This document shows positions 52,377-62,421 of a stretch of 64,000 bases of DNA, one piece after another. The notes under the pieces are model-generated. The model had not been told where the DNA came from, made no database searches, and saw nothing but the letters and a program-made list of their open reading frames with translations. Source of the DNA: an uncultured Alphaproteobacteria bacterium (lineage in GTDB: Bacteria; Pseudomonadota; Alphaproteobacteria; Bin65); the NCBI GenBank assembly GCA_963730305.1, contig CAVSRB010000004.1:1-64000 (forward strand). Reading direction: 5' to 3'. Within the stretch, counting starts at the first letter, position 1; every line of letters starts with the position of its first letter. The translations under genes were made by a program, and so were the position numbers.

Positions 52377-53507
52377 ATGATCAAGCGTTTCGTTATCGTC
52401 GGCATCCTGCTGGCCGTCGTGTTCGGCGGGCTGGCCGTCTTCCAGTACGTGCTGAAGCCGATGTTTATCGCCCAGTTCGTCGCCAACCTGAAGCCGCCGC
52501 CGGTGACCATCTCCGCAACCAAGGCCAAGCTGACGCCGTGGCAGCCGACCCTGACCACGATCGGCACCCTGCAAGCGACCCGGGGCGTCTCGGTGTCGCC
52601 ACTGGTCGGCGGCAGGGTCAAGTCGATCAACTTCAAGTCGGGCCAGCAGGTGACCGTGGGTACGCTACTGGTCACGTTGGACGATTCGATCGAGCAGGCC
52701 CAGCTCAAGGAGGCGCAGTCGGCGCTCAAGCTGTCCGAGCTCGACCTCCAGCGCGGCCTCGAGCTCTATCAGAAGAACAACTACCCCAAGGCGAGCCTGG
52801 ACAAGGCGCGGGCGCAGCGCGACCAGAACGAGGCCAAGGTCGAGTCGCTGCGCGCGACCATCAAACAGAAGAAGATCCACGCGCCCTTCACCGGGCGGCT
52901 CGGCATCCGCCAGATCAACCTGGGCCAGTATCTCTCGCCCGGCACGGCGATCGTGCCGCTGCAGGCGCTCGACCCGATCTTCGTCAACTTCTCGCTGCCG
53001 GAGACCGACCTCCCCAAGCTCGAAGTCGGGCAGACGGTGACACTGACCGTCGACGGCTATCCAGGCGACGACTTCCAGGGCCAGATCACCTCGATCGACG
53101 CCGAGGTCAACCAGAGCACGCGCAACATCCTGGTCCAGGCCACCTTGCGCAATCCCGGCTCGAAGCTGCTGCCCGGCATGTTCGCCAATGTGGATGTGCT
53201 CTACGCCGCCGAGATCAAGCGGGTGACGGTGCCGCAGACCGCGATCTCCTACAGCCTCTATGGCGACACCGTGTTCGTGATTACCAGCGGCAAGCCGGAG
53301 AAGCCGGGCGGCAAGGCGGTGATGACCGTCCAGCGCCGCAGCGTCAAGGTGGGGCCGCGGCGCGGCGACGTCGTCGCCATCCTGTCGGGGCTCAAGGCCG
53401 GTGATACGGTGGCGACCTCCGGGCAGATCAAGCTGCGCAACGGTGCGCGGGTGACGATCAACAACTCGGTCGAGTTATCGCCGCCGAAGGTACGGCCGAA
53501 GCCTTGA
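52377..53507 (+). CDS. RND efflux periplasmic adaptor (membrane fusion protein), 376 aa
   Basis: N-terminal TM anchor, coiled-coil hairpin, biotin-lipoyl and beta-barrel segments; overlaps pump start. Confidence 0.85.
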   Translation: MIKRFVIVGILLAVVFGGLAVFQYVLKPMFIAQFVANLKPPPVTISATKAKLTPWQPTLTTIGTLQATRGVSVSPLVGGRVKSINFKSGQQVTVGTLLVTLDDSIEQAQLKEAQSALKLSELDLQRGLELYQKNNYPKASLDKARAQRDQNEAKVESLRATIKQKKIHAPFTGRLGIRQINLGQYLSPGTAIVPLQALDPIFVNFSLPETDLPKLEVGQTVTLTVDGYPGDDFQGQITSIDAEVNQSTRNILVQATLRNPGSKLLPGMFANVDVLYAAEIKRVTVPQTAISYSLYGDTVFVITSGKPEKPGGKAVMTVQRRSVKVGPRRGDVVAILSGLKAGDTVATSGQIKLRNGARVTINNSVELSPPKVRPKP

Positions 53508-56500
53508 GCGCTCCGCCCTCCAACCGCGCGCCGCACGGCAACGGCGGCGAACGCGGCTTCACCGACACGTTCATCGAGCGCCCGGTGCTGGCGACGGTGA
53601 TCAGCCTGCTGGTCCTGCTCCTCGGCGTGCAAGCCTTCTACAGCCTGCCGGTCCGCCAGTATCCGAAGCTGACCAACACCCAGATCACGATTACCACGGC
53701 CTATCCGGGCGCCAACGCGGACCTGATCCAGGGCTTCATCACGACCCCGATCCAGCAGGCCGTCGCGAGCACCGAGGGTATCGACTACATGACGTCGTCG
53801 AGCACCCAGAACGTGAGCGTGATTACGTTGAACCTGCGGCTCGACGCCGACGGCGACAAGGCGCTGACCGAGGTGTTGTCGAAGGTCAACCAGGTCCGCA
53901 ACACGATTCCGTCGGAGGCCAACGAGCCGGTCGTGGTCAAGAAGACCGGCGATTCGACCGCGCTGATGTATATCGGCTTCAACAGCGCCAATATGACGCC
54001 GTCGCAGATCACCGACTATCTGACCCGGGTGATCCAGCCCAAGCTGCAGACGGTCAACGGCGTCGCCGACGCGAAGATCCTGGGCGGCCAGACCTTCGCC
54101 ATGCGCATCTGGATGAACCCCAAGCGGATGGCCGCGCTGGGCGTGACGCCGACCGACATCCAGAACGCGCTCAGAACCAACAACTACGTCTCCGCGCCGG
54201 GCCAGATCAAAGGCGACTACGTCCAGACCAACATCACCGCCGCGACCAGCCCGGAAACCGCCCGCGCCTTCGCCAACCTCGTCGTGGCGGCGCGCAACGA
54301 CACCCTGATCCGATTGCGCGACGTGGCAACGGTCGAGCTCGGACCGCAGTCCGTCGATTCGTCGTCGGTGTTCAGCGGGCTCAAGGCGGTCTTCGTCGGC
54401 GTCTACGCGACGCCGTCGGCCAATCCGCTGACCGTGATCAGCGACGTGCGCAAGGCATTGCCCGAAATTCGCCAGCAGCTTCCCGACGGGCTCAAGGCGA
54501 CGGTCGCCTACGACGCCACCGTCTTCATCCAGGCGTCGATCGACGAGGTCATCTCGACCATCGTCGAGGCGGCGGTGATCGTGATCGTGGTGATCTTCCT
54601 GTTCCTCGGCACCATCCGCTCGACCCTGATCCCGATCGTGACCATCCCGCTGTCGTTGATCGGCGTGTTGTTCCTGATGCTGGCGATGGGCTTTTCGGTC
54701 AACCTGTTGACCTTGCTCGCCATGGTGTTGGCGATCGGCCTGGTGGTCGACGACGCGATCGTCGTGGTCGAGAACATCCACCGCCACATCGAGGAGGGAA
54801 TGTCGCCGCACCAGGCGGCGCTGAAAGGTGCGCGCGACATCGCCGTGCCGGTCATCTCGATGACCATCACGCTCGCCGCGGTCTATGCCCCGATCGGCTT
54901 CCTCGGCGGACTGACCGGCGGCCTGTTCAAGGAGTTTGCCTTCACCCTGGCGGGATCGGTGATCCTGTCGGGGGTCATCGCGCTCACCCTGTCGCCGATG
55001 ATGTGTTCGAAGCTGTTGAGAGCCGACGCCAGCGCAGGCCGGTTCAGCCACTTCCTCGACCGGCGCTTCGAGGGGCTGAAGAACTGGTACGGACGGCGGC
55101 TCGGCCGGGTGCTGTTGTTCCGGCCGGTGGTGCTGATGGTCGCGGTCGTCGTGCTCGGCAGTTGCGTCTTCCTCTACACCGGTACGCGCAAGGAACTGGC
55201 GCCGACCGAGGACCAGGGCGCGGTCTTCATGCTGATCAAGTCGCCGCAATACGCCAACCTGGACTATCTCGAGAAATTCTCGAACCAGCTCGGCAAGATC
55301 TTCGAGAAGGTGCCCGAATACGCCAACTTCTTCCTGATCAACGGCAGCCCGACGGTGAACCAGGGCATCGCCGGCCTGCTGCTGAAGCCGTGGGGCGACC
55401 GCGATCGCAGCCAGGCCCAGGTGCTGGCGTCGCTGAAGCCCAAGCTGAACACCGTCGCCGGCCTTCAGGTCCTGGCCTTCCCGCTGCCGTCGCTGCCGGG
55501 CAGTACGGGCGGCCCGCCGCTCCAGTTCGTGATCAAGACCACCGCGGACTACAGGACGCTCTACGGCATTCTCGAGAAGTTGCAGTCGGCGGCCATGCAA
55601 AGCGGCCTGTTCGTCTTCCTCGATTCCGACCTGAGGTTCAACAACCCGCAGCTACAGGTCGAGATCGACCGCGCCAAGGCGAACGAGCTCGGCATCTCCA
55701 TGCAGGACATCGGCATCGCGCTGTCGACCATGTATGGCGGCAACTACACCAACCGCTTCTCCCTGCTTGGCCGCAGCTACCAAGTGATCCCACAGGTGCC
55801 GCGGAAATTCCGACTCAACCCGGATACCCTCAAGGGGATCTACGTGCGCACCAAGGGCGGCAAGCTGGTCTCGCTGGCGACGGTTACCCACTCGTCCCGC
55901 TCGGTCCAGCCCAACGCGCTGACCACCTTCCAGCAGCTCAATTCGGCGACGATCCAGGGCGTGATGTATCCAGGCCGGTCGCTGGGCGAGGGGCTGGACT
56001 TCCTGCAGAAGAAGGCGAAGGAGCTGTTCCCGGAGGGCTTCACGTACGACTTCCAGGGAGAGAGCCGCCAGCTCGTCCAGGAGGGCGACACGCTCGCGAT
56101 CGCCTTTGCGTTCGCCCTGATCGTGATCTTCCTGGTGCTGGCCGCGCAGTTCGAGAGCTTCCGCGACCCGCTGATCATCCTGATCGCGGTGCCGATGTCG
56201 ATCGCCGGCGCCTTGATCCCGATGAACCTGGGACTGGCTACGGTCAACATCTACACCCAGGTCGGCCTGGTCACGCTGATCGGCCTGATCAGCAAGCACG
56301 GCATCCTGATGGTCGAGTTCGCCAACCAGCTCCAGGCCGAGGAGAATATCGACAAGCACGCGGCGATCCAGAAGGCGGCCTCGATTCGGCTGAGACCGAT
56401 CCTGATGACCACGGCGGCGATGGTGGTCGCCATGGTGCCGCTGCTGATCGCCTCGGGCGCCGGCGCCAAGAGCCGCTTCGACATCGGCCTGGTGATCGCC

Positions 56501-56611
56501 GCCGGCATGACCATCGGCACGATGTTCACCCTGTTCGTGGTGCCGACCATCTACACCTACCTGGCCGGCGACCATCGCCCGACCGAGGCCGAGACGGCGC
56601 CCGCGGCCTGA
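53504..56611 (+). CDS. RND efflux transporter permease (AcrB/MexB hydrophobe/amphiphile efflux-1 family), 1035 aa
   Basis: 12-TM RND architecture, two large periplasmic loops, conserved TM4 D-D region (LAIGLVVDDAIVVVENI). Confidence 0.9.
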   Translation: MSAPPSNRAPHGNGGERGFTDTFIERPVLATVISLLVLLLGVQAFYSLPVRQYPKLTNTQITITTAYPGANADLIQGFITTPIQQAVASTEGIDYMTSSSTQNVSVITLNLRLDADGDKALTEVLSKVNQVRNTIPSEANEPVVVKKTGDSTALMYIGFNSANMTPSQITDYLTRVIQPKLQTVNGVADAKILGGQTFAMRIWMNPKRMAALGVTPTDIQNALRTNNYVSAPGQIKGDYVQTNITAATSPETARAFANLVVAARNDTLIRLRDVATVELGPQSVDSSSVFSGLKAVFVGVYATPSANPLTVISDVRKALPEIRQQLPDGLKATVAYDATVFIQASIDEVISTIVEAAVIVIVVIFLFLGTIRSTLIPIVTIPLSLIGVLFLMLAMGFSVNLLTLLAMVLAIGLVVDDAIVVVENIHRHIEEGMSPHQAALKGARDIAVPVISMTITLAAVYAPIGFLGGLTGGLFKEFAFTLAGSVILSGVIALTLSPMMCSKLLRADASAGRFSHFLDRRFEGLKNWYGRRLGRVLLFRPVVLMVAVVVLGSCVFLYTGTRKELAPTEDQGAVFMLIKSPQYANLDYLEKFSNQLGKIFEKVPEYANFFLINGSPTVNQGIAGLLLKPWGDRDRSQAQVLASLKPKLNTVAGLQVLAFPLPSLPGSTGGPPLQFVIKTTADYRTLYGILEKLQSAAMQSGLFVFLDSDLRFNNPQLQVEIDRAKANELGISMQDIGIALSTMYGGNYTNRFSLLGRSYQVIPQVPRKFRLNPDTLKGIYVRTKGGKLVSLATVTHSSRSVQPNALTTFQQLNSATIQGVMYPGRSLGEGLDFLQKKAKELFPEGFTYDFQGESRQLVQEGDTLAIAFAFALIVIFLVLAAQFESFRDPLIILIAVPMSIAGALIPMNLGLATVNIYTQVGLVTLIGLISKHGILMVEFANQLQAEENIDKHAAIQKAASIRLRPILMTTAAMVVAMVPLLIASGAGAKSRFDIGLVIAAGMTIGTMFTLFVVPTIYTYLAGDHRPTEAETAPAA

Positions 56612-56683: not shown

Positions 56684-58429
56684 GTGGAACGCCGTCTCGC
56701 AGCCATTCTCGCCGCCGACGTGGTCGGCTACTCGCGGCTCGTCCGGGCCGACGAGGAAGGCACGCTCCAGGCGCTGCAGACGCTCAGGGCGGAGCTGATC
56801 GACCCGACCATCGCCGCGCACAACGGCCGCATCGTCAAGCTGATGGGCGACGGCATCCTGGTCGAGTTCGCCAGCGTCGTCGACGCGGTGCGCACCGCCG
56901 CCTCGGTCCAGCAGGCGATCGCCGCGCGCAACGGCGACGTGCCGGAGGACCGGCGCCTCGTGCTGCGCATCGGCGTCAACCTGGGCGACGTGGTCATCGA
57001 CGGCGCCGACATCCAGGGCGACGGCGTCAACGTCGCCGCGCGCCTGGAAGGCCTGGCCGAGCCCGGCGGCATCTGCATTTCCGACGGCGTCCACGAGCAG
57101 GTCCGCGACCGGCTCGACCACGCCTTCGAGGACATGGGGGCGCAGACGGTCAAGAACATCGACCGGCCGGTGCGCGCGTGGCGATGGACCGCGGAAGGTT
57201 CGGCGGCCGCCCCGGAACCGGGCGCCAGCGCCGACGCCGGCGTGTCGGACAAGCCGTCGATCGCCGTGCTGCCGTTCGACAACATGTCGGGCGACGCCGA
57301 GCAGGGCTATTTCGCCGACGGCATCTCCGAGGACATCATCACCGACCTGTCCAAGGTCTCGGGCCTGTTCGTCATCGCCCGCAACTCGTCCTTCGCCTAC
57401 CGGGGCAAGAGCCCGGACATCCGCAACGTCTGCCGCGAGCTGGGCGTGCGCTACGTGCTCGAAGGCAGCGTCCGCCGCGCCGGCGACCGGGTCCGGATCA
57501 ACGCCCAGCTCATCGAGGGAACCGGCGGCGGCCACGTCTGGGCTGACCGGTTCGACCGCGACCTCGCCGATATCTTCGCGGTCCAGGACGAGGTCACCCG
57601 CGAGATCGTCGGCGCGCTCAAGGTCGCGTTGACCGCTGGCGAGGAGACCCAGCGGGAGGGCCGGCGCAAGGTCGACCCCGAGGCCTACGACCTCTACGTC
57701 CGGGCGCGGGCGCACCTGTTCCGGTTCACCCCCGAAGCGAATCTCGAATGCCGCGCGTCGCTCGAAAAGGCGCTCGCACGCGACCCGACCCTGGCGGCGG
57801 CGCAAGCCATGATCGCGCTGTCGCTCGCTACCGACTATTTCAACGGCTGGAACGGCAGCAGCCTGGAGACGATGACGACGGCGCGACGGATCGCCGAAGA
57901 CGCCGTGCGGAGCGACCCGACCGAGGTCCAGGCCTATCACGCCATCGCGCTCACCAGGATGTGGAGCGGCAATCTCGACAAGGCCCTGGAAGCGGCCGAA
58001 AAGGCGCTCGAGCTCAATCCGAACTTCGCAGGCGGCGTGGTAGCGCTGGGCCAAGCGCGGGACTTCGCCGGCGACCACCGGGGCGCGATCGAGGCCGCCG
58101 AGAAGGCGCTCGCACTCGATCCGCATTACGATATCGGCATGCAGTTGCTGGGTCGCGCCCAGTTCGGCCTGGAGCAGGACGACGACGCCCTCAAGAGCTT
58201 CGAGCAGCGGCTGGCGCTCAACCCCAATTCCGATATGTCGCGCGCCTTCCTGACCGCCATCCACGGCCTCGCCGGCCGGCAGGACGAGGCGCGCCAGAAC
58301 CTGGAGAAACTGCGCGCGGTCAATCCGTCCTTCTCGGTCGAGGCGCTCCGCAAGATCTATCCCTACAAGTCGCCCGCCGTGATGGACCGCCTCGCCGACG
58401 GCCTGGCCAAGGCGGGCTTCACCGAATGA
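56684..58429 (+). CDS. Class III adenylate/guanylate cyclase catalytic domain fused to TPR repeats, 581 aa
   Basis: CHD motifs (LAAILAADVVGYSRL ... KLMGDGILVEF ... RIGVNLGDVV), C-terminal TPR array. Confidence 0.8.
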   Translation: MERRLAAILAADVVGYSRLVRADEEGTLQALQTLRAELIDPTIAAHNGRIVKLMGDGILVEFASVVDAVRTAASVQQAIAARNGDVPEDRRLVLRIGVNLGDVVIDGADIQGDGVNVAARLEGLAEPGGICISDGVHEQVRDRLDHAFEDMGAQTVKNIDRPVRAWRWTAEGSAAAPEPGASADAGVSDKPSIAVLPFDNMSGDAEQGYFADGISEDIITDLSKVSGLFVIARNSSFAYRGKSPDIRNVCRELGVRYVLEGSVRRAGDRVRINAQLIEGTGGGHVWADRFDRDLADIFAVQDEVTREIVGALKVALTAGEETQREGRRKVDPEAYDLYVRARAHLFRFTPEANLECRASLEKALARDPTLAAAQAMIALSLATDYFNGWNGSSLETMTTARRIAEDAVRSDPTEVQAYHAIALTRMWSGNLDKALEAAEKALELNPNFAGGVVALGQARDFAGDHRGAIEAAEKALALDPHYDIGMQLLGRAQFGLEQDDDALKSFEQRLALNPNSDMSRAFLTAIHGLAGRQDEARQNLEKLRAVNPSFSVEALRKIYPYKSPAVMDRLADGLAKAGFTE

Positions 58430-58914
58430 CCGCCGCCGCCAGCATCCCGCCGCTCGAAGGCGGCTGCACCTGCGGCGGCGTGCGCTATCGGCTGACCGCG
58501 CCGCCGTTGTTCGTCCACTGCTGCCACTGCACCTGGTGCCAGCGCGAGACCGGCTCGGCCTTCGCCGTCAACGCCCTGATCGAGTCCAGCGAGGTCGTCC
58601 TGCTCGACGGCGACGTGGTCCGCACGCCCGTGCCCTCGGCCAGCGGCAAGGGGCAGGTCTTCGCCCGCTGCACGCGCTGCGGCGTGACCTTGTGGAGCCA
58701 CTATTCCGGCATGGGCGACGCGATCGCCTTCGTCCGCACCGGCACGCTCGACGACACCGCGACGGTGGCGCCGGACATCCACATCTACACGTCGACCCGG
58801 CGGCCCTGGGTGATCCTGCCGGACGGCGTGCCGGCGGTGGCGGAATACTATCGCCGCGCCGATCACTGGCCCGCCGACAGCCTCGCCCGGTTCGAGGCCG
58901 CGGTCGCGGGCTAG
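58426..58914 (+). CDS. GFA (glutathione-dependent formaldehyde-activating / CENP-V) family Zn-binding protein, 162 aa
   Basis: CxC ... CHC ... C ... CxxC pattern (GGCTCGGVRY, HCCHCTWCQ, CTRCG); ATGA overlap with cyclase stop. Confidence 0.75.
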   Translation: MTAAASIPPLEGGCTCGGVRYRLTAPPLFVHCCHCTWCQRETGSAFAVNALIESSEVVLLDGDVVRTPVPSASGKGQVFARCTRCGVTLWSHYSGMGDAIAFVRTGTLDDTATVAPDIHIYTSTRRPWVILPDGVPAVAEYYRRADHWPADSLARFEAAVAG

Positions 58915-59050: not shown

Positions 59051-60424
59051 ATGGCGGAATTCCGTCGGCCCCGTTTCCCGAACGGGCCGTATCACTGTCG
59101 CACCGGTTACCGCGGGCCGCTGCTCGGCCTGACGCTCGCCGCGAGTTTGCTCGCCCTCGTCGGCGGCGCTGCGGATGCGCGCGCAGAAGGGAAGCCGCCG
59201 GCGAAGATCACCTACGCCGATATCCTGCGCGACCCCGACAATTTCGCGCTGAACCTCGCCTTCGCCCGTGCCGAGATCCGGCGCGGCCAGTTCCAGAGCG
59301 CGTCGACCGTCCTGAACCGGCTGGTCCTGCTCCGGCCGAACAGCCTCGCCGCCCGCGTGCTCTACGCGGTCGTGCTCTACCGGCTCGACAGCTTCAACGA
59401 GGCCAAGCGGCAGCTCGACCTGCTGCTGGCCCAGCCGCGCCTGCCCAAGCAATTGCGCAAGGAGTTGAGCATCTACCGCGCCGAGATCGGCCGGCGGCTG
59501 CGCAGCACCAACGTCCAGCTCATGACCTCGACCGGCGTGGCCGTCGACACCAACCCGAGCCGGCTGCCCAACGGCGACACCTTCGGCAGCCTGAACCTAT
59601 CGACCGCGGACAAGCGCAAGACCGACGTCGCGCTGGTCAACTATGCGCGCCTGTCGGTGGAGCACGACCTCGGCCTGCCCCAGCGGCAGGTGCTGTTCGG
59701 GTCGCTCGCCTACTACCACATGGAATACAAGGACACGCCGCGCGCCTCGCACCTGATCCTGTTCGGCAAGGCGGGGGCGCGCCTCCACTTCGGCGATTGG
59801 CAGGTGACGCCGAGGCTGGACGGCCAGTGGGCCTTCCTCTCCCACGAGCAGTTCATGCGCAGCCTGCAGGCGCGGCTGACGGTCGGCCGCGACCTCGGCC
59901 ACCGCACCCGCCTGTCCGGCTTCGTCGCCGCCGGGCCGCGGCTGTTCGACGGCCTGTCGGAATCGCCCGACCAGCGCCAGCGCACCGGCGCCGAATACCG
60001 AGGCGGCCTGACGCTGCGGCGGACGATCGGCGACAACATGGTGCTGAGGCTGGACGCCGAGTTCATCCGCCAGTCGGCGGCCGCCGACTATTACAGCCTC
60101 TCCGGCTACCGCCTGGCGCTCCATCACCGGTGGCGGTTCCACAACGGCATGTTCCTGCTCAGCCGCTTCGCCTGGCAGCTGGACCAGTATGACGGCCGCA
60201 ATTCAGCCGACGGGGTGGGCGACGCCCGGCGCGATTCGCGCTTCAACGTCGGCACGCTGCTGGGCGTGCCGCTGTTGACCATCGACCGCCGCCTGCCCGC
60301 CTTCTTCAACCGGTCCGCGGTGACGCTGGACGTGGACTACTGGACCAACGATTCGAACATCGGCCGCTACACCAACGACGCGTGGCGGTTCGTCGTCAGC
60401 TTCACCAAGCGGTTCGACCTGTGA
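59051..60424 (+). CDS. Outer-membrane beta-barrel protein with N-terminal TPR-like domain (DUF560/Slam-like), 457 aa
   Basis: Signal peptide, TPR-like helices (ALNLAFARAEIRRGQFQSA...), C-terminal ~300 aa of alternating amphipathic strands ending ...WRFVVSFTKRFDL. Confidence 0.5.
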   Translation: MAEFRRPRFPNGPYHCRTGYRGPLLGLTLAASLLALVGGAADARAEGKPPAKITYADILRDPDNFALNLAFARAEIRRGQFQSASTVLNRLVLLRPNSLAARVLYAVVLYRLDSFNEAKRQLDLLLAQPRLPKQLRKELSIYRAEIGRRLRSTNVQLMTSTGVAVDTNPSRLPNGDTFGSLNLSTADKRKTDVALVNYARLSVEHDLGLPQRQVLFGSLAYYHMEYKDTPRASHLILFGKAGARLHFGDWQVTPRLDGQWAFLSHEQFMRSLQARLTVGRDLGHRTRLSGFVAAGPRLFDGLSESPDQRQRTGAEYRGGLTLRRTIGDNMVLRLDAEFIRQSAAADYYSLSGYRLALHHRWRFHNGMFLLSRFAWQLDQYDGRNSADGVGDARRDSRFNVGTLLGVPLLTIDRRLPAFFNRSAVTLDVDYWTNDSNIGRYTNDAWRFVVSFTKRFDL

Positions 60425-60435
60425 GGAGCGAGACC

Positions 60436-61335
60436 GTGCGCCGCAAACCGATCACCCGCGCGACCGCCGCGCTCGCGATCATCGCCCTCGGCCCGATCAG
60501 CCTGGCGGGCCCGGCGTTCGCCCAGACCGGCAAGGAGGTGCGCGCCGGCGTCGCCGCCGCCATCACCGGCGACGTGCGCCGCGTGTCGTTCCGCACGCCG
60601 CACGCCAAGATCGGCCATGTCATCGCCAGCGGCGATCCGATCTATCTCGGCGACAAGATCACGACCGGGAGCAAGGGCCGGCTGCAGATCCTGCTGCAGG
60701 ACCGCACCACCTTCACCATCGGCTCGAACGCCGCGATCGTCATCGACGAGTTCGTCTATGACCCCAAGACGTCGAAGGGCAAGCTGTCCGCGCGCATCCT
60801 GAAGGGCGCGTTCCGCTTCGTCTCGGGTCGGATCGCGGCGCAGAACCCGGGCAACGTGAAGGTGAAGCTGCCAACGGCCGTGATCGGCATCCGCGGGACC
60901 ATCGTCCTCGGCATCGCCGACGGCACCCGGTCGGTCGTCGTGCTCGAGGGCGTCGGCCCCGAGAACAACATCGGCCAGGCGAAGAGCACCATCACGGTGA
61001 CCGCGGGCGGCCAGACCATCACGATCTACCGGACCGGCTGGGGCATCGTCATCCAGGGACCGGACACGCCCCCCGGTACGCCGATCCGCTTCGACGCCGC
61101 CGCGATCAACGCGATCCTGAAGTTCCTCGGCGACAATCTCGACGCGCTGGGGATCAACCCCGGCACGGTGCCGCCCTTCACCGTCGAGCCGCCGCGCGGC
61201 CCGATCTCGGGGCTGACCGAGCTGCTCCAGTTGATTCAGGACATTCAGAATGAGCTCAACCGGACGCCGGAGGTAACGCCGCCCCCACCACCGCCGCCGC
61301 CCCCGCCACCGTGCTGCTACTACGAAGAAGGCTGA
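60436..61335 (+). CDS. Secreted FecR-domain protein with C-terminal poly-proline and Cys-Cys tail (GTG start; ORF track start 60382)
   Basis: Signal peptide (AFA/QT), FecR-like beta-sandwich motifs (GDKITTGSKGRLQILLQDRTTFTIGSNAAIVIDEF), tail TPPPPPPPPPPPCCYYEEG. Confidence 0.6.
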   Translation: MRRKPITRATAALAIIALGPISLAGPAFAQTGKEVRAGVAAAITGDVRRVSFRTPHAKIGHVIASGDPIYLGDKITTGSKGRLQILLQDRTTFTIGSNAAIVIDEFVYDPKTSKGKLSARILKGAFRFVSGRIAAQNPGNVKVKLPTAVIGIRGTIVLGIADGTRSVVVLEGVGPENNIGQAKSTITVTAGGQTITIYRTGWGIVIQGPDTPPGTPIRFDAAAINAILKFLGDNLDALGINPGTVPPFTVEPPRGPISGLTELLQLIQDIQNELNRTPEVTPPPPPPPPPPPCCYYEEG

Positions 61336-61373: not shown

Positions 61374-61577
61374 CTAGACCTGCCAGAACCACTTGGCGCA
61401 TTCCTGGCGCCGGTCGGCCTCGGTGATGCCGATGTCGTGCAGTTGCCGGGCGTCGAGCACGAACAGCTGCCGGCGCGTCCGTGAGCGACGGCGCCAGGTG
61501 CGCGTCCGGGTGATCGCGATCCGGATCGGCCAGGCAAGCCGGGAACATCCGAACGTCCATATCCGCTCGGTCGTCAT
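61374..61577 (-). CDS. DUF1127 small protein, 67 aa
   Basis: C-terminal RRRSRTRRQLFVLDARQLHDIGITEADRRQECAKWFWQV matches DUF1127 hallmark (Arg-rich, DIGLtR, K.FW); GGAGG RBS; called from inside a longer spurious ORF. Confidence 0.65.
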   Translation of the reverse strand: MTTERIWTFGCSRLAWPIRIAITRTRTWRRRSRTRRQLFVLDARQLHDIGITEADRRQECAKWFWQV

Positions 61578-61723
61578 GGTCACAGCCTCCGCCGTCGTGC
61601 CGTCGTCATGGCCGCACCCTGACCCGAGAGGCCCGAAGGATGTTACGGTCGTTTCCGAAGCATCCGACCGGCCGTCGCGGGCATCCTTGCCGGAGCCGCC
61701 AGGGAGACGCCCCATGACCAGCA

Positions 61724-62421
61724 TGACCCGTTTCGCCGAGATCGCCGCCCAGGCCGGGAACCCGGCGCGCGCCACGATGCTGCACGCCCTCCTGGAGGGC
61801 CGCGCGCTGACCGCCAACGAGCTGTCCCAGGTCGCCGGCGTGGCCCCGCAGACCGGCAGCGGCCACCTGGCAAGCCTGGTCGCGGCGGGGCTGGTGTGCG
61901 TCCAGAAGCAAGGCCGGCACCGCTATCATCGGCTGGCGTCGCCCGCCGTCGCGCAGATGCTCGAAAGCATCATGCAGGTCGCCGCCGAGGGCGCGCCGAC
62001 ACCCTCACGGCTGGCCACGGGTCCGCGCGACGCCGCGCTGCGGGCGGGGCGGACCTGCTACGACCATTTGGCCGGCCGGCTCGGCGTCGCCCTGGCCGAT
62101 GGCCTCGCCGCCCGCGGCCATATCGAGCTCGACTGGGACGCGGGCCTGCTGACCGACAGCGGCAGCGCCCTGCTCGCGTCGATCGGCGTCGACATGGCGG
62201 CGCTGACGGGCCCGGGGCGCAAGTCGCACCGGGTCTTCTGCCGGCCGTGCCTCGACTGGAGCGAGCGCCGCCCCCACATCGCCGGCGCGGTCGGCGCCGC
62301 GCTGTGTTCGGTCAGCTTGGACAAGGGCTGGATCCGGCGGGTCGAGGGCAGCCGGGCGGTGGCGACGACCCCGGCCGGGCAACGAGCCTTGCGCGACTAT
62401 TTCGGGGTGACGGTCGGCTGA
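61724..62421 (+). CDS. ArsR/SmtB-family winged-helix transcriptional regulator with extended C-terminal domain, 232 aa
   Basis: HTH region LHALLEGRALTANELSQVAGVAPQTGSGHLASLVAAGLV; divergent from DUF1127 gene. Confidence 0.7.

Follow-up and report, generated by a model that had tools for sequence, protein, structure and literature searches.

What is a barrel-forming outer-membrane protein doing next to a secreted FecR-fold protein that ends in a run of prolines and two adjacent cysteines? Two neighboring genes in a 64-kb stretch of DNA from an uncultured alphaproteobacterium (the window, 64,000 nucleotides in full) raise this question. An earlier note on the same DNA had taken the first gene for a DUF560/Slam surface-lipoprotein translocator and the second for an atypical Slam cargo or the bearer of a novel surface-display signal. 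In our reading, the barrel is of the Slam family, the FecR-fold protein is its dedicated adaptor, and the two together are a pared-down relative of an envelope signaling module linked to a cyclase. Both open reading frames, of 457 aa and 299 aa, are present. The features of the first, the outer-membrane protein (OMP), are as follows.

59051-60424, plus strand: OMP gene, 457 aa, encoding a divergent Slam/DUF560 (type 11 secretion) superfamily member
59051-59185, plus strand: probable Sec signal peptide of the OMP, residues 1 to ~43-45, by inspection, with cleavage near ADA/RA or ARA/E
59213-59500, plus strand: periplasmic TPR-like helical domain of the OMP, residues ~55-150 (Pfam, AlphaFold2 helices)
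59507-60421, plus strand: 14-stranded β-barrel of the OMP, residues 153-457, ending ...FTKRFDL

The OMP starts with a hydrophobic, signal-like segment (LLGLTLAASLLALVGGAADA, by inspection of the translation), which has a pLDDT below 50 in the AlphaFold2 model. Residues 60-128 match TPR_19 (E = 5.7e-8) and also TPR_9, ANAPC3, and TPR_14 in Pfam, and the model places helices at residues 55-60, 65-77, 81-94, 99-111, 115-126, and 133-150. Exactly 14 β-strands follow between residues 153 and 456 (mean pLDDT of the model is 76, with the barrel region mostly above 80). The succession of signal peptide, TPR-like region, and C-terminal β-domain that the earlier note had claimed is thus found, with a TPR domain of ~100 aa.

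The DUF560 architecture has been described as an N-terminal TPR domain of ~140 aa followed by a 14-strand barrel (PMC8406197), and the window OMP shows this combination of TPR domain and 14-strand barrel. Its own sequence matches neither PF04575 (SlipAM/DUF560) nor PF24575 in Pfam at E ≤ 0.1 or E ≤ 1. Among 42 members of the OMP family, PF24575 (TPR_Slam) is matched by 31 and PF04575 by 14, and three relatives exceed the PF04575 gathering score of 22 bits (L025, 36.2 bits; L064, 38.3 bits; L062, 26.6 bits). The L025 OMP and the window OMP are homologous along their entire length (BLASTP E = 3e-43, 30% identity over 412 aa), and the TPR region of the latter corresponds to the stretch that matches TPR_Slam in the relatives. 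By homology to relatives that pass PF04575, the window OMP is a distant relative of the Slam/T11SS barrel. The DUF560/Slam identity assigned previously therefore stands on architecture and on these relatives, but not on a DUF560 match of the protein's own.

The second gene encodes the FecR-fold partner.

60436-61335, plus strand: gene for the FecR-fold protein, 299 aa, short form, GTG start
60436-60522, plus strand: Sec-type signal peptide, residues 1-29, ending ...GPAFA/Q, by inspection, without lipobox
60538-61080, plus strand: FecR-fold β-sandwich domain, residues ~35-215, including residues 61-110, which resemble the LapA/MpIBP retention module
61081-61278, plus strand: linker, residues 216-281 (IRFDAAAINAILKFLG ... 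LTELLQLIQDIQNELNRTPEVT), probably helical, partly from the alignment to the homologue P0028 and partly by inspection
61279-61311, plus strand: run of 11 consecutive prolines, residues 282-292, read from DNA and translation, in mixed CCG/CCC/CCA codons
61312-61335, plus strand: C-terminal tip CC-YY-EEG and stop codon, read from the DNA

Translation most likely starts at the GTG at 60436, which lies 11 nt past the OMP stop codon, is preceded by GAGGAG, and is the start used in the database form (299 aa); the mechanically called reading frame (60382-61335) offers an alternative upstream start at 60382, which would give 317 aa. The signal sequence (...LAGPAFA/QTG, by inspection) has no lipobox cysteine, and a lipobox-like motif is found in none of the 28 short-form homologues listed. 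The protein matches Pfam PF04773 above the gathering score (E = 7.1e-12, 46.1 bits versus a cutoff of 24), in agreement with the earlier description of a secreted non-lipoprotein with a FecR-like domain. The resemblance of this domain to the LapA/MpIBP retention module (PDB ID 5ix9) is real but partial, and the corresponding model NF033682 scores 21.6 bits against a curated cutoff of 50. Across phyla, the N-domain of the FecR protein shows 44-50% identity versus 25-30% for the OMP. The linker aligns up to residue 231 with P0028, where a helix spans residues 221-231 in the model; beyond residue 231, where there is no alignment to P0028, we judge it helical by inspection of the sequence.

Is the pairing of the two genes more than accidental? 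An alignment of six OMP members was used to find related loci, and a FecR-family gene lies directly downstream of the OMP gene on the same strand in 53 of 57 evaluable species-representative loci (L001, L003, and L004 have the same arrangement). Genomes with the pair belong to Omnitrophota, Elusimicrobiota, Alpha- and Deltaproteobacteria, Spirochaetales, and Planctomycetia. Because the adjacency is kept in 53/57 loci across phyla, chance can be ruled out, and the co-occurrence analysis that the earlier note had called for comes out in its favor. That note had named as grounds against itself an OMP outside DUF560 or of another TPR-barrel type and a pair that is not co-conserved; given the conservation of the pair, neither applies in spirit. 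The two genes form an operon-like unit, with the FecR-fold protein as a dedicated, Sec-exported, non-lipidated partner of the OMP. An exhaustive profile search returned 3729 matches to the OMP family, and the large sister family to which the window pair leads comprises 514 clusters (50% identity) at E ≤ 1e-30. A word-indexed search had found 6 matches, and its suggestion of a rare orphan is a sensitivity artifact. A literature search of limited coverage returned no experiments on any family member.

The same conservation bears on the proposal that the OMP is an exopolysaccharide exporter of the BcsC/PgaA/PelB kind, or a generic porin, and that the FecR gene is an unrelated neighbor. The TPR region has weak NCBIfam similarity to PgaA/PrsT (E ~1e-3, far below the cutoffs), and in a few alphaproteobacterial loci, the downstream genes include glycosyltransferases. 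However, the barrel has 14 strands rather than 16, the TPR domain is short at ~100 aa, polysaccharide synthase genes are neither conserved with the OMP nor present near the window pair, and an unrelated neighbor would not be expected directly downstream in nearly all evaluable loci. We consider this explanation very improbable and, on strand count and co-occurrence, in effect refuted. A BcsC/PgaA-type exporter was rejected on its scores as well (14.5 bits for the PgaA NCBIfam model versus 366).

The C terminus of the FecR-fold protein is its most unusual part. It had been described as 12 consecutive prolines followed by vicinal cysteines; the DNA encodes 11 prolines, directly followed by the two cysteines and then by YYEEG. 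At least 6 prolines in the last 30 residues are found in 19 of the 28 short-form homologues listed versus 0 of 88 long forms, and at least 2 cysteines in the last 15 residues in 16/28 versus 0/88. The Pro-rich tail is thus a hallmark of the short-form subfamily and not a chance oddity. Related short forms end in PPCCSD, SYCYPYCN, SYCYSCY, TCFPSCF, or KCIYCLGD, and cysteine-free variants in GDYFGVEG, VYDFSEF, YGD, FYY, or GYF. The cysteines are not strictly conserved: P0008, which is 90% identical to the window protein, ends in PPPPPPPPPPPGDYFGVEG, and P0009 ends in PPPVYDFSEF. The closest homologues do without the tail cysteines, which therefore cannot be essential. A role of the proline run and CC tail as a surface-display signal, as suggested in the earlier note, is pure conjecture.

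In typical family members, the FecR-fold protein ends instead in an 8-strand barrel of the type recognized by Slam translocons. The AlphaFold2 model of the long form P0028 (pLDDT 83) shows an 8-strand C-terminal domain, the C terminus of a Shinella FecR protein matches the NCBIfam entry NF041636 "Slam-dependent surface lipoprotein" (E = 1.2e-8), and a Paracoccus FecR homologue matches TbpB_B_D (E = 2.3e-4). The window protein is a short form, in which the helical linker, the 11 prolines, and CCYYEEG take the place of the cargo barrel. Of the features that mark T11SS cargo, it has the Sec signal and the gene adjacency but not the C-terminal barrel. A C-terminal-barrel HMM detected no 8-strand cargo barrel in any open reading frame of the 64-kb window, and so the only known Slam recognition element is missing there. 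Short and long forms occur in common operons with the same OMP.

A full-length CHASE2 adenylate/guanylate cyclase, confirmed by Pfam, is encoded in 41 of the 53 OMP-FecR loci, and short-form alphaproteobacterial loci have the gene order CHASE2-cyclase, OMP, FecR, FecR. The typical family is an undescribed, widespread three-gene module consisting of a CHASE2 adenylate/guanylate cyclase, a Slam-like OMP, and at least one FecR-fold protein. Because the pair normally adjoins such a cyclase, its neighborhood points to envelope signaling rather than to simple secretion. The CHASE2 neighborhood is the strongest contextual clue to the pair, and it was missed in the earlier note.

The window pair is an orphan, short-form member of this module. 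There is no CHASE2 gene in the 64-kb window and none at the locus of the closest relative (L005); the genes flanking the pair encode GFA, DUF1127, an ArsR/MarR regulator, and an RND pump. The only cyclase gene in the window, an upstream class III cyclase-TolB_N-TPR gene (56684-58429), was rejected as a signaling partner: it has no CHASE2 domain, its match to the family cyclase is weak (E = 1e-6), and L005 has no such gene between RND and GFA.

How could a Slam-type barrel, a FecR-fold protein, and a periplasmic sensor domain work together? Our preferred reading, which we put forward tentatively and at somewhat less than even confidence, is that the OMP and the FecR-fold protein form an outer-membrane complex of split topology, with the FecR domain in the periplasm and the C-terminal extension in or across the outer membrane. 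We infer the split itself only by analogy. Support for a periplasmic FecR domain comes from Sinorhizobium meliloti NsrA, a FecR-TPR-barrel protein of which only the barrel loops are placed at the cell surface, and from FecR-CHASE2 operons for which no outer-membrane protein is listed. The FecR-fold domain would remain periplasmic and dock on the TPR domain of the OMP, and where a cyclase is present, it would couple to CHASE2, likewise periplasmic. Of the whole protein, the Slam-like barrel would insert the C-terminal extension alone into the outer membrane or pass it across. This extension would, in long forms, be a surface-displayed, ligand-binding 8-strand barrel, and the complex would be an outer-membrane-crossing receptor feeding cAMP/cGMP synthesis. 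In the window protein, the extension would be reduced to a stiff rod of 11 prolines, ~3 nm long as a polyproline-II helix, with CC-YY-EEG at its tip, and the rod could fill the lumen of the barrel or extend as far as the surface. As no cyclase gene adjoins it, the window pair may partner a cyclase encoded elsewhere, or it may be a remnant with reduced function. Against this reading stand the lack of a direct Pfam match for the window OMP, the missing cargo barrel and CHASE2 gene, the retention-module score below its cutoff, and the loss of the tail cysteines in close homologues. All characterized T11SS cargo cross the outer membrane completely, which speaks against a split topology.

This precedent leads to a conventional type 11 secretion pair, in which the OMP would translocate the whole FecR-fold protein, to be released or loosely associated with the surface, and the helical/P11/CC C terminus would be an alternative targeting signal replacing the 8-strand barrel. 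It is the "atypical Slam cargo" of the earlier note, and the data allow it. The OMP falls within the Slam superfamily, long-form homologues carry the canonical targeting barrel, and the short-form tail is conserved as a type. All T11SS studied by experiment carry the product of the neighboring gene right through the outer membrane, and their cargo can be soluble and non-lipidated (PMC8406197, PMC12282271); for Cluster 3 T11SS loci, cargo without the barrel has already been proposed (DUF1194; PMC12282271). Yet the one targeting domain that has been validated is missing from the window protein, and both the FecR fold and CHASE2, its partner in the genome, act in the periplasm. Direct signaling to a periplasmic CHASE2 domain would be impossible for a released protein, and in NsrA the FecR domain is placed on the periplasmic side of the barrel by its authors. 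The much higher conservation of the FecR N-domain than of the OMP also fits a conserved contact on the inner side better than a variable surface effector. We regard full secretion as unlikely, though a serious contender.

A purely periplasmic FecR-fold partner is also conceivable. It would bind the TPR domain of the OMP or another periplasmic target with nothing being translocated; the Pro-rich tail would serve as a flexible or rigid spacer, the cysteines would form a DsbA-made disulfide or bind metal, and the OMP would be an NsrA-like signal-entry or relay barrel rather than a secretin. NsrA provides the precedent, having FecR, TPR, and barrel in one chain required for CyaK signaling, FecR-CHASE2 operons exist for which no outer-membrane protein is listed, and the window protein has no cargo barrel. 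Such a partner would leave unexplained why long-form partners carry a Slam-cargo barrel and why the OMP is of the Slam type and not another barrel, and the sharing of operons and OMP by short and long forms suggests that both are handled in the same way. We find this explanation quite improbable.

The split-topology complex can be extended to the family as a whole. Type 11 secretion parts would then have been built into an outer-membrane-crossing signaling device, in which a Slam-type barrel holds a threaded protein, the FecR/retention-module domain acts as periplasmic plug and as transmitter to the CHASE2 cyclase, and the signal is received outside by the C-terminal part (in long forms a TbpB-like, ligand-binding barrel of 8 strands, in the window a polyproline rod tipped with Cys/aromatic residues). 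In this general form, the proposal is doubtful. If true, it would provide the first defined upstream input for CHASE2 domains, for which no ligand or input was known as of 2016 (PMC5192318), and a type 11 secretion system would have been turned to signal transduction in at least five phyla. The only functional lead on CHASE2 input is S. meliloti NsrA/CyaK, and NsrA combines the same FecR, TPR, and barrel parts in fused form. The window copy is a reduced, orphan version of limited value for direct tests, but it leads to a large sister family in several phyla with a cargo-like FecR-fold partner and, usually, a neighboring CHASE2 cyclase. Together with the NsrA lead, this makes the family a source of two- and three-gene systems that can be tested in cultured strains (Paracoccus aminophilus pAMI5, Shinella sp. 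H4-D48 p1), to learn how an outer-membrane barrel informs a cyclic-nucleotide cyclase and whether a protein can be held across the membrane by a Slam-type barrel instead of being released.

Like the Slam/T11SS proteins (Neisseria Slam1/2, Xenorhabdus NilB/HrpB), the window OMP has a signal peptide, a TPR domain in the ~100-140 aa range, a 14-strand barrel, and a partner encoded next door; some relatives in the family score above the PF04575 gathering threshold, and the 8-strand cargo barrel is found in long-form partners. Unlike these systems, the window OMP has no match to the Pfam model, and its partner has no cargo barrel. The functional domain of the partner is a FecR fold and not a TbpB or hemophilin handle, and what accompanies the family locus is a CHASE2 cyclase, not TonB/metal-uptake genes. 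Type 11 secretion is described in Proteobacteria only, with cargo roles in metal/heme capture, adhesion, and immune evasion (PMC8406197, PMC12282271), whereas the OMP family extends well beyond, to Omnitrophota, Elusimicrobiota, Spirochaetales, and Planctomycetia.

The FecR/PupR anti-sigma regulators (FecA-FecR-FecI) differ from the window FecR protein, which has only a cleavable signal peptide and neither a cytoplasmic anti-sigma domain nor a transmembrane helix. No ECF sigma factor or TonB-dependent transducer is found among the genes flanking the pair, and the output of the family is a nucleotide cyclase, not a sigma factor. The giant RTX adhesins LapA and MpIBP share the retention module, to which the window match is below the curated cutoff, but RTX repeats, type 1 secretion genes, and LapG/LapD are missing from the window, and their channel is TolC-like whereas that of the window is a Slam-type barrel.

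Secreted FecR-domain proteins have been linked to CHASE2-type signaling before, in an operon in Burkholderia and in a regulon in S. meliloti. The Burkholderia operon combines a LysM-FecR protein (COG4254) with a CHASE2 histidine kinase, and no outer-membrane protein is among its listed components (PMC5192318); it thus differs in having LysM in place of a cargo barrel or Pro-rich tail, a kinase output, and no listed Slam-like OMP. In S. meliloti, the FecR-domain protein SMc02177 is encoded by a Clr target gene in the cAMP/Clr regulon, which is controlled by the CHASE2 cyclases CyaD1/D2/K (PMC5498481).

NsrA (SMb20775) is a single chain of 1197 aa with the order FecR, TPR, barrel, encoded immediately upstream of cyaK (pSymB record), whereas the TPR-barrel and the FecR protein of the window are separate. 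The barrel region of NsrA is far bigger (~600 aa) and gave no match to the OMP family profile, there is no Slam-cargo barrel, and the window, unlike the nsrA-cyaK locus, has no CHASE2 cyclase within 64 kb. Experiments show that the CHASE2 cyclase CyaK needs NsrA to perceive an external protein signal (PMC7529298, PMC13001267), and the authors place the barrel loops of NsrA alone at the cell surface (PMC7529298). As in the family described here, a FecR domain, TPRs, and an outer-membrane barrel stand beside a CHASE2 cyclase, and NsrA is the closest studied analogue of the window pair.

The OMP gene and the FecR gene close a series of five plus-strand genes in the window:

53504–56611, plus strand, RND efflux pump
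56684–58429, plus strand, class III cyclase with TolB_N and TPR domains
58495–58914, plus strand, GFA-family gene
59051–60424, plus strand, 457-amino acid ORF (OMP)
60436 (likeliest start, GTG)–61335, plus strand, FecR-domain ORF

The GTG codon at 60436, the most likely start of the FecR gene, lies 11 nt past the OMP stop codon, is preceded by GAGGAG and yields the public, 299-residue form of the protein. With this short gap and start context, the two genes look like a single transcription unit; a promoter and terminator scan around them gave nothing informative. The gene pair described in the earlier note is real, with minor corrections. The FecR gene is followed by an unrelated, convergent ORF (61374–61817, minus strand, 147 amino acids) and, overlapping it on the opposite strand, an ORF for an ArsR/MarR-type regulator. 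The convergent ORF matches DUF1127 (E = 2.6e-8) over its last 34 residues, and the true gene is probably much shorter.

The Slam-like (DUF560) reading of the OMP is right at the superfamily level. The window protein has TPR motifs at residues 60–128 as its sole Pfam and NCBIfam matches and gave no DUF560/SlipAM match even at E ≤ 1, but its relatives do match. A word-indexed search found six relatives only; an exhaustive profile search returned 3729 matches, with 514 cluster representatives at E ≤ 1e-30. When 42 relatives from the latter were scanned individually for Pfam domains, TPR_19 was present in all 42, TPR_Slam (PF24575) in 31 and SlipAM (PF04575) in 14 (best E = 1.6e-8). Three OMPs from related loci exceed the SlipAM gathering score of 22 bits (L025, 36.2; L064, 38.3; L062, 26.6 bits). 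The window OMP shares 30% identity over 412 residues with the L025 protein (E = 3e-43), in an alignment spanning TPR and barrel, and DUF560 proteins have been described as an N-terminal TPR domain of ∼140 amino acids followed by a 14-strand barrel (PMC8406197). From transitive homology through such above-threshold relatives and from the shared architecture, we conclude that the OMP is a divergent member of the Slam/type 11 secretion system (T11SS) superfamily, although the curated model itself is not matched.

A locus scan limited to a single genome for each GTDB species yielded 66 loci. After ORF calling, we searched these with local HMMs of the OMP, of the FecR N-domain and of the C-terminal domain found in long forms. 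A same-strand FecR-family gene is found directly 3' of the OMP gene in 53 of the 57 loci with enough downstream sequence (L026, one of the 53, was scored by hand), bearing out the co-occurrence of the pair. Gene order is identical on the metagenomic contigs L001, L003, and L004; the FecR gene is absent despite sufficient room in two loci, L058 (same contig as L002) and L067 from Desertibaculum. Going by their record titles, the loci come from Omnitrophota, Elusimicrobiota, Alphaproteobacteria, Deltaproteobacteria/Myxococcota, Spirochaetales, Planctomycetia, and a single Gammaproteobacterium. We regard a chance adjacency of the FecR gene, or a polysaccharide exporter function of the OMP, as essentially excluded. 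Many loci contain tandem FecR paralogues, in which one to three short forms come after a long one. In an alphaproteobacterial MAG (L061, 6022–10567) the module itself is duplicated in tandem, OMP-FecR-OMP-FecR, and in the second FecR protein a P9 run is followed by CDELRC and ∼35 further residues.

The downstream protein contains a FecR domain (PF04773, E = 7e-12) and has a Sec-type signal and no lipobox, consistent with the secreted non-lipoprotein the earlier note had proposed. Its sequence resembles a retention module (5ix9_A, E = 0.0067; NCBIfam retention_LapA, E = 1.9e-4, under the curated cutoff). Residues 3–231 share 44% identity with P0028, a 449-residue homologue whose gene adjoins a family OMP in L062. 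In long forms, the FecR fold is followed by a C-terminal eight-strand barrel of cargo type. The FecR protein of Shinella plasmid p1 (849 amino acids) matches NF041636, “Slam-dependent surface lipoprotein” (E = 1.2e-8, profile positions 20–154 of 154), and the homologue on Paracoccus aminophilus pAMI5 matches TbpB_B_D (E = 2.3e-4) and FHBP_C (E = 2.3e-3), both under gathering scores. The Slam-like OMP thus adjoins proteins with a Slam targeting barrel, which is strong circumstantial evidence that it handles the long-form FecR proteins. The pAMI5 protein (L079) also has collagen-like repeats (Pfam Collagen, E = 3.7e-4). Giant FecR-family proteins of ∼1670–1690 amino acids are encoded directly 3' of the OMP gene in Elusimicrobia (L037, 7247–12307; L040, 7247–12325; L043, 7220–12232); their very strong cargo-barrel HMM matches (E around 1e-85) suggest several tandem eight-strand barrels, comparable with multi-lobed TbpB-like cargo.

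The window FecR protein is a short form: no window ORF encodes a C-terminal cargo barrel, and the FecR fold is followed by a probably helical linker and the terminus NRTPEVT-P11-CC-YY-EEG. The reported proline run and CC are present, but the run comprises 11 prolines rather than 12, encoded by mixed codons at 61279–61311. We compared 28 short forms (270–335 amino acids) with 88 long forms. At least six prolines among the last 30 residues occur in 19/28 short forms, at least two cysteines among the last 15 in 16/28, and both features in 13/28; the corresponding counts in long forms are 0/88 throughout. On these counts, the Pro/Cys tail is a subfamily trait of the short forms, with typical endings RPG..PPPPPPPPCCSD, PPPAPPSYCYPYCN, PPKAPSYCYSCY, and PPPPPSNDDNYYKCIYCLGD. 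Where an alphaproteobacterial locus encodes two short forms in tandem, the first protein ends with two cysteines and the second has a proline-rich, aromatic end without cysteine (PPPPPPPYGD, PPPPFYY, P12-GYF); Omnitrophota short forms have acidic or Ser-rich low-complexity tails instead. In the nearest relatives of the window protein, P0008 (90% identity) and P0009 (78%), the tail cysteines are absent; what is conserved is therefore a rod rich in proline that ends in a short aromatic or Cys tip, rather than CC itself.

A third partner emerged from contigs with Pro/Cys-tailed short forms, which encode, in this order, a CHASE2 cyclase (732 amino acids), a TPR-OMP (about 482 amino acids) and two FecR proteins. 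In 41 of the 53 OMP-FecR genome loci, a full-length homologue of this cyclase is encoded no more than 6 kb away; its gene is divergent and upstream in 17 loci, convergent and downstream in 16 and on the same strand in 8. Pfam confirmed the CHASE2 and Guanylate_cyc domains. The pair is part of a broad, previously undescribed module in which a Slam-like OMP and a dedicated FecR-fold partner are joined, in most loci, by a linked CHASE2 cyclase; this module, beyond the frame of the earlier note, is the more interesting result. Cultured strains carrying it are Shinella sp. H4-D48 (plasmid p1) and P. aminophilus (pAMI5), with OMP genes annotated merely as “hypothetical” or “tetratricopeptide repeat protein.” On either side of the three-gene Shinella module (L077, 5515–11685) lie genes for NHLP-type bacteriocin export, which encode C39 peptidase ABC transporters and a secretion protein. 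On pAMI5, the OMP-FecR-CHASE2-cyclase operon has a divergent neighbor gene (L079, 194–2020) encoding a patatin-like phospholipase that binds cyclic nucleotides and could be an effector reading the cyclase product. In L001 (13474–16364, Elusimicrobiota), the pair is followed closely by two caspase-like (Peptidase_C14) genes in tandem and one for a large TPR protein; fusions of CHASE2 domains to metacaspases are also known from cyanobacteria.

The window copy is a reduced orphan, with no CHASE2 gene across the 64 kb. The cyclase at 56684–58429 (581 amino acids; N-terminal class III cyclase, TolB_N-like domain, C-terminal TPRs) lacks both a CHASE2 domain and any obvious transmembrane segment, and we rejected it as a module partner. 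It is missing from L005, the syntenic locus in the closest relative (RND, GFA, OMP, FecR), and so appears to be an insertion specific to the lineage and unconnected with the pair.

We tentatively favor a split arrangement, which we rate as quite possible. The FecR-fold domain would stay in the periplasm, dock on the OMP TPR domain and couple to CHASE2, and the C-terminal extension would enter or cross the outer membrane via the Slam-like barrel. Long forms would become membrane-crossing receptors; in the window short form only the 11-proline rod with its Cys/Tyr tip would reach into or through the barrel. By our estimate, an 11-proline polyproline-II helix would measure ∼3 nm, about as much as the outer membrane is thick. 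The strongest competing explanation, conventional T11SS export of the entire FecR protein in which the tail would serve as a substitute signal, we consider rather unlikely; the idea of an atypical Slam cargo is plausible for the family but unproven for the window short form. A purely periplasmic partner that is not translocated seems to us improbable.

In a limited full-text set, no paper joins DUF560/T11SS/Slam with FecR-domain cargo, CHASE2 or retention modules; one T11SS preprint names FecR solely as a co-occurring regulator gene, and a 2025 cargo survey lists about ten architectures, none with a FecR fold. Periplasmic FecR-domain proteins are known neighbors of CHASE2 sensors (PMC5192318), and the Sinorhizobium meliloti FecR-domain protein SMc02177 is a target of the cAMP-dependent regulator Clr (PMC5498481). 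In the same organism, the OMP NsrA is needed for perception of an external protein signal by the CHASE2 cyclase CyaK (PMC7529298, PMC13001267). nsrA sits on pSymB directly upstream of cyaK (L078, 3225–6818) and is annotated just as “FecR domain-containing protein”; the 1197-residue product has a signal peptide, a FecR domain (E = 1.5e-15), TPRs at ∼415–530 and a C-terminal barrel region of ∼600 amino acids. Its authors place the barrel loops alone at the cell surface (PMC7529298), and the FecR domain of NsrA is therefore in the periplasm. The OMP family profile did not detect the NsrA barrel, and this region has no Pfam match; the parts, FecR, TPR and barrel, are those of the window pair, fused in NsrA into one protein.
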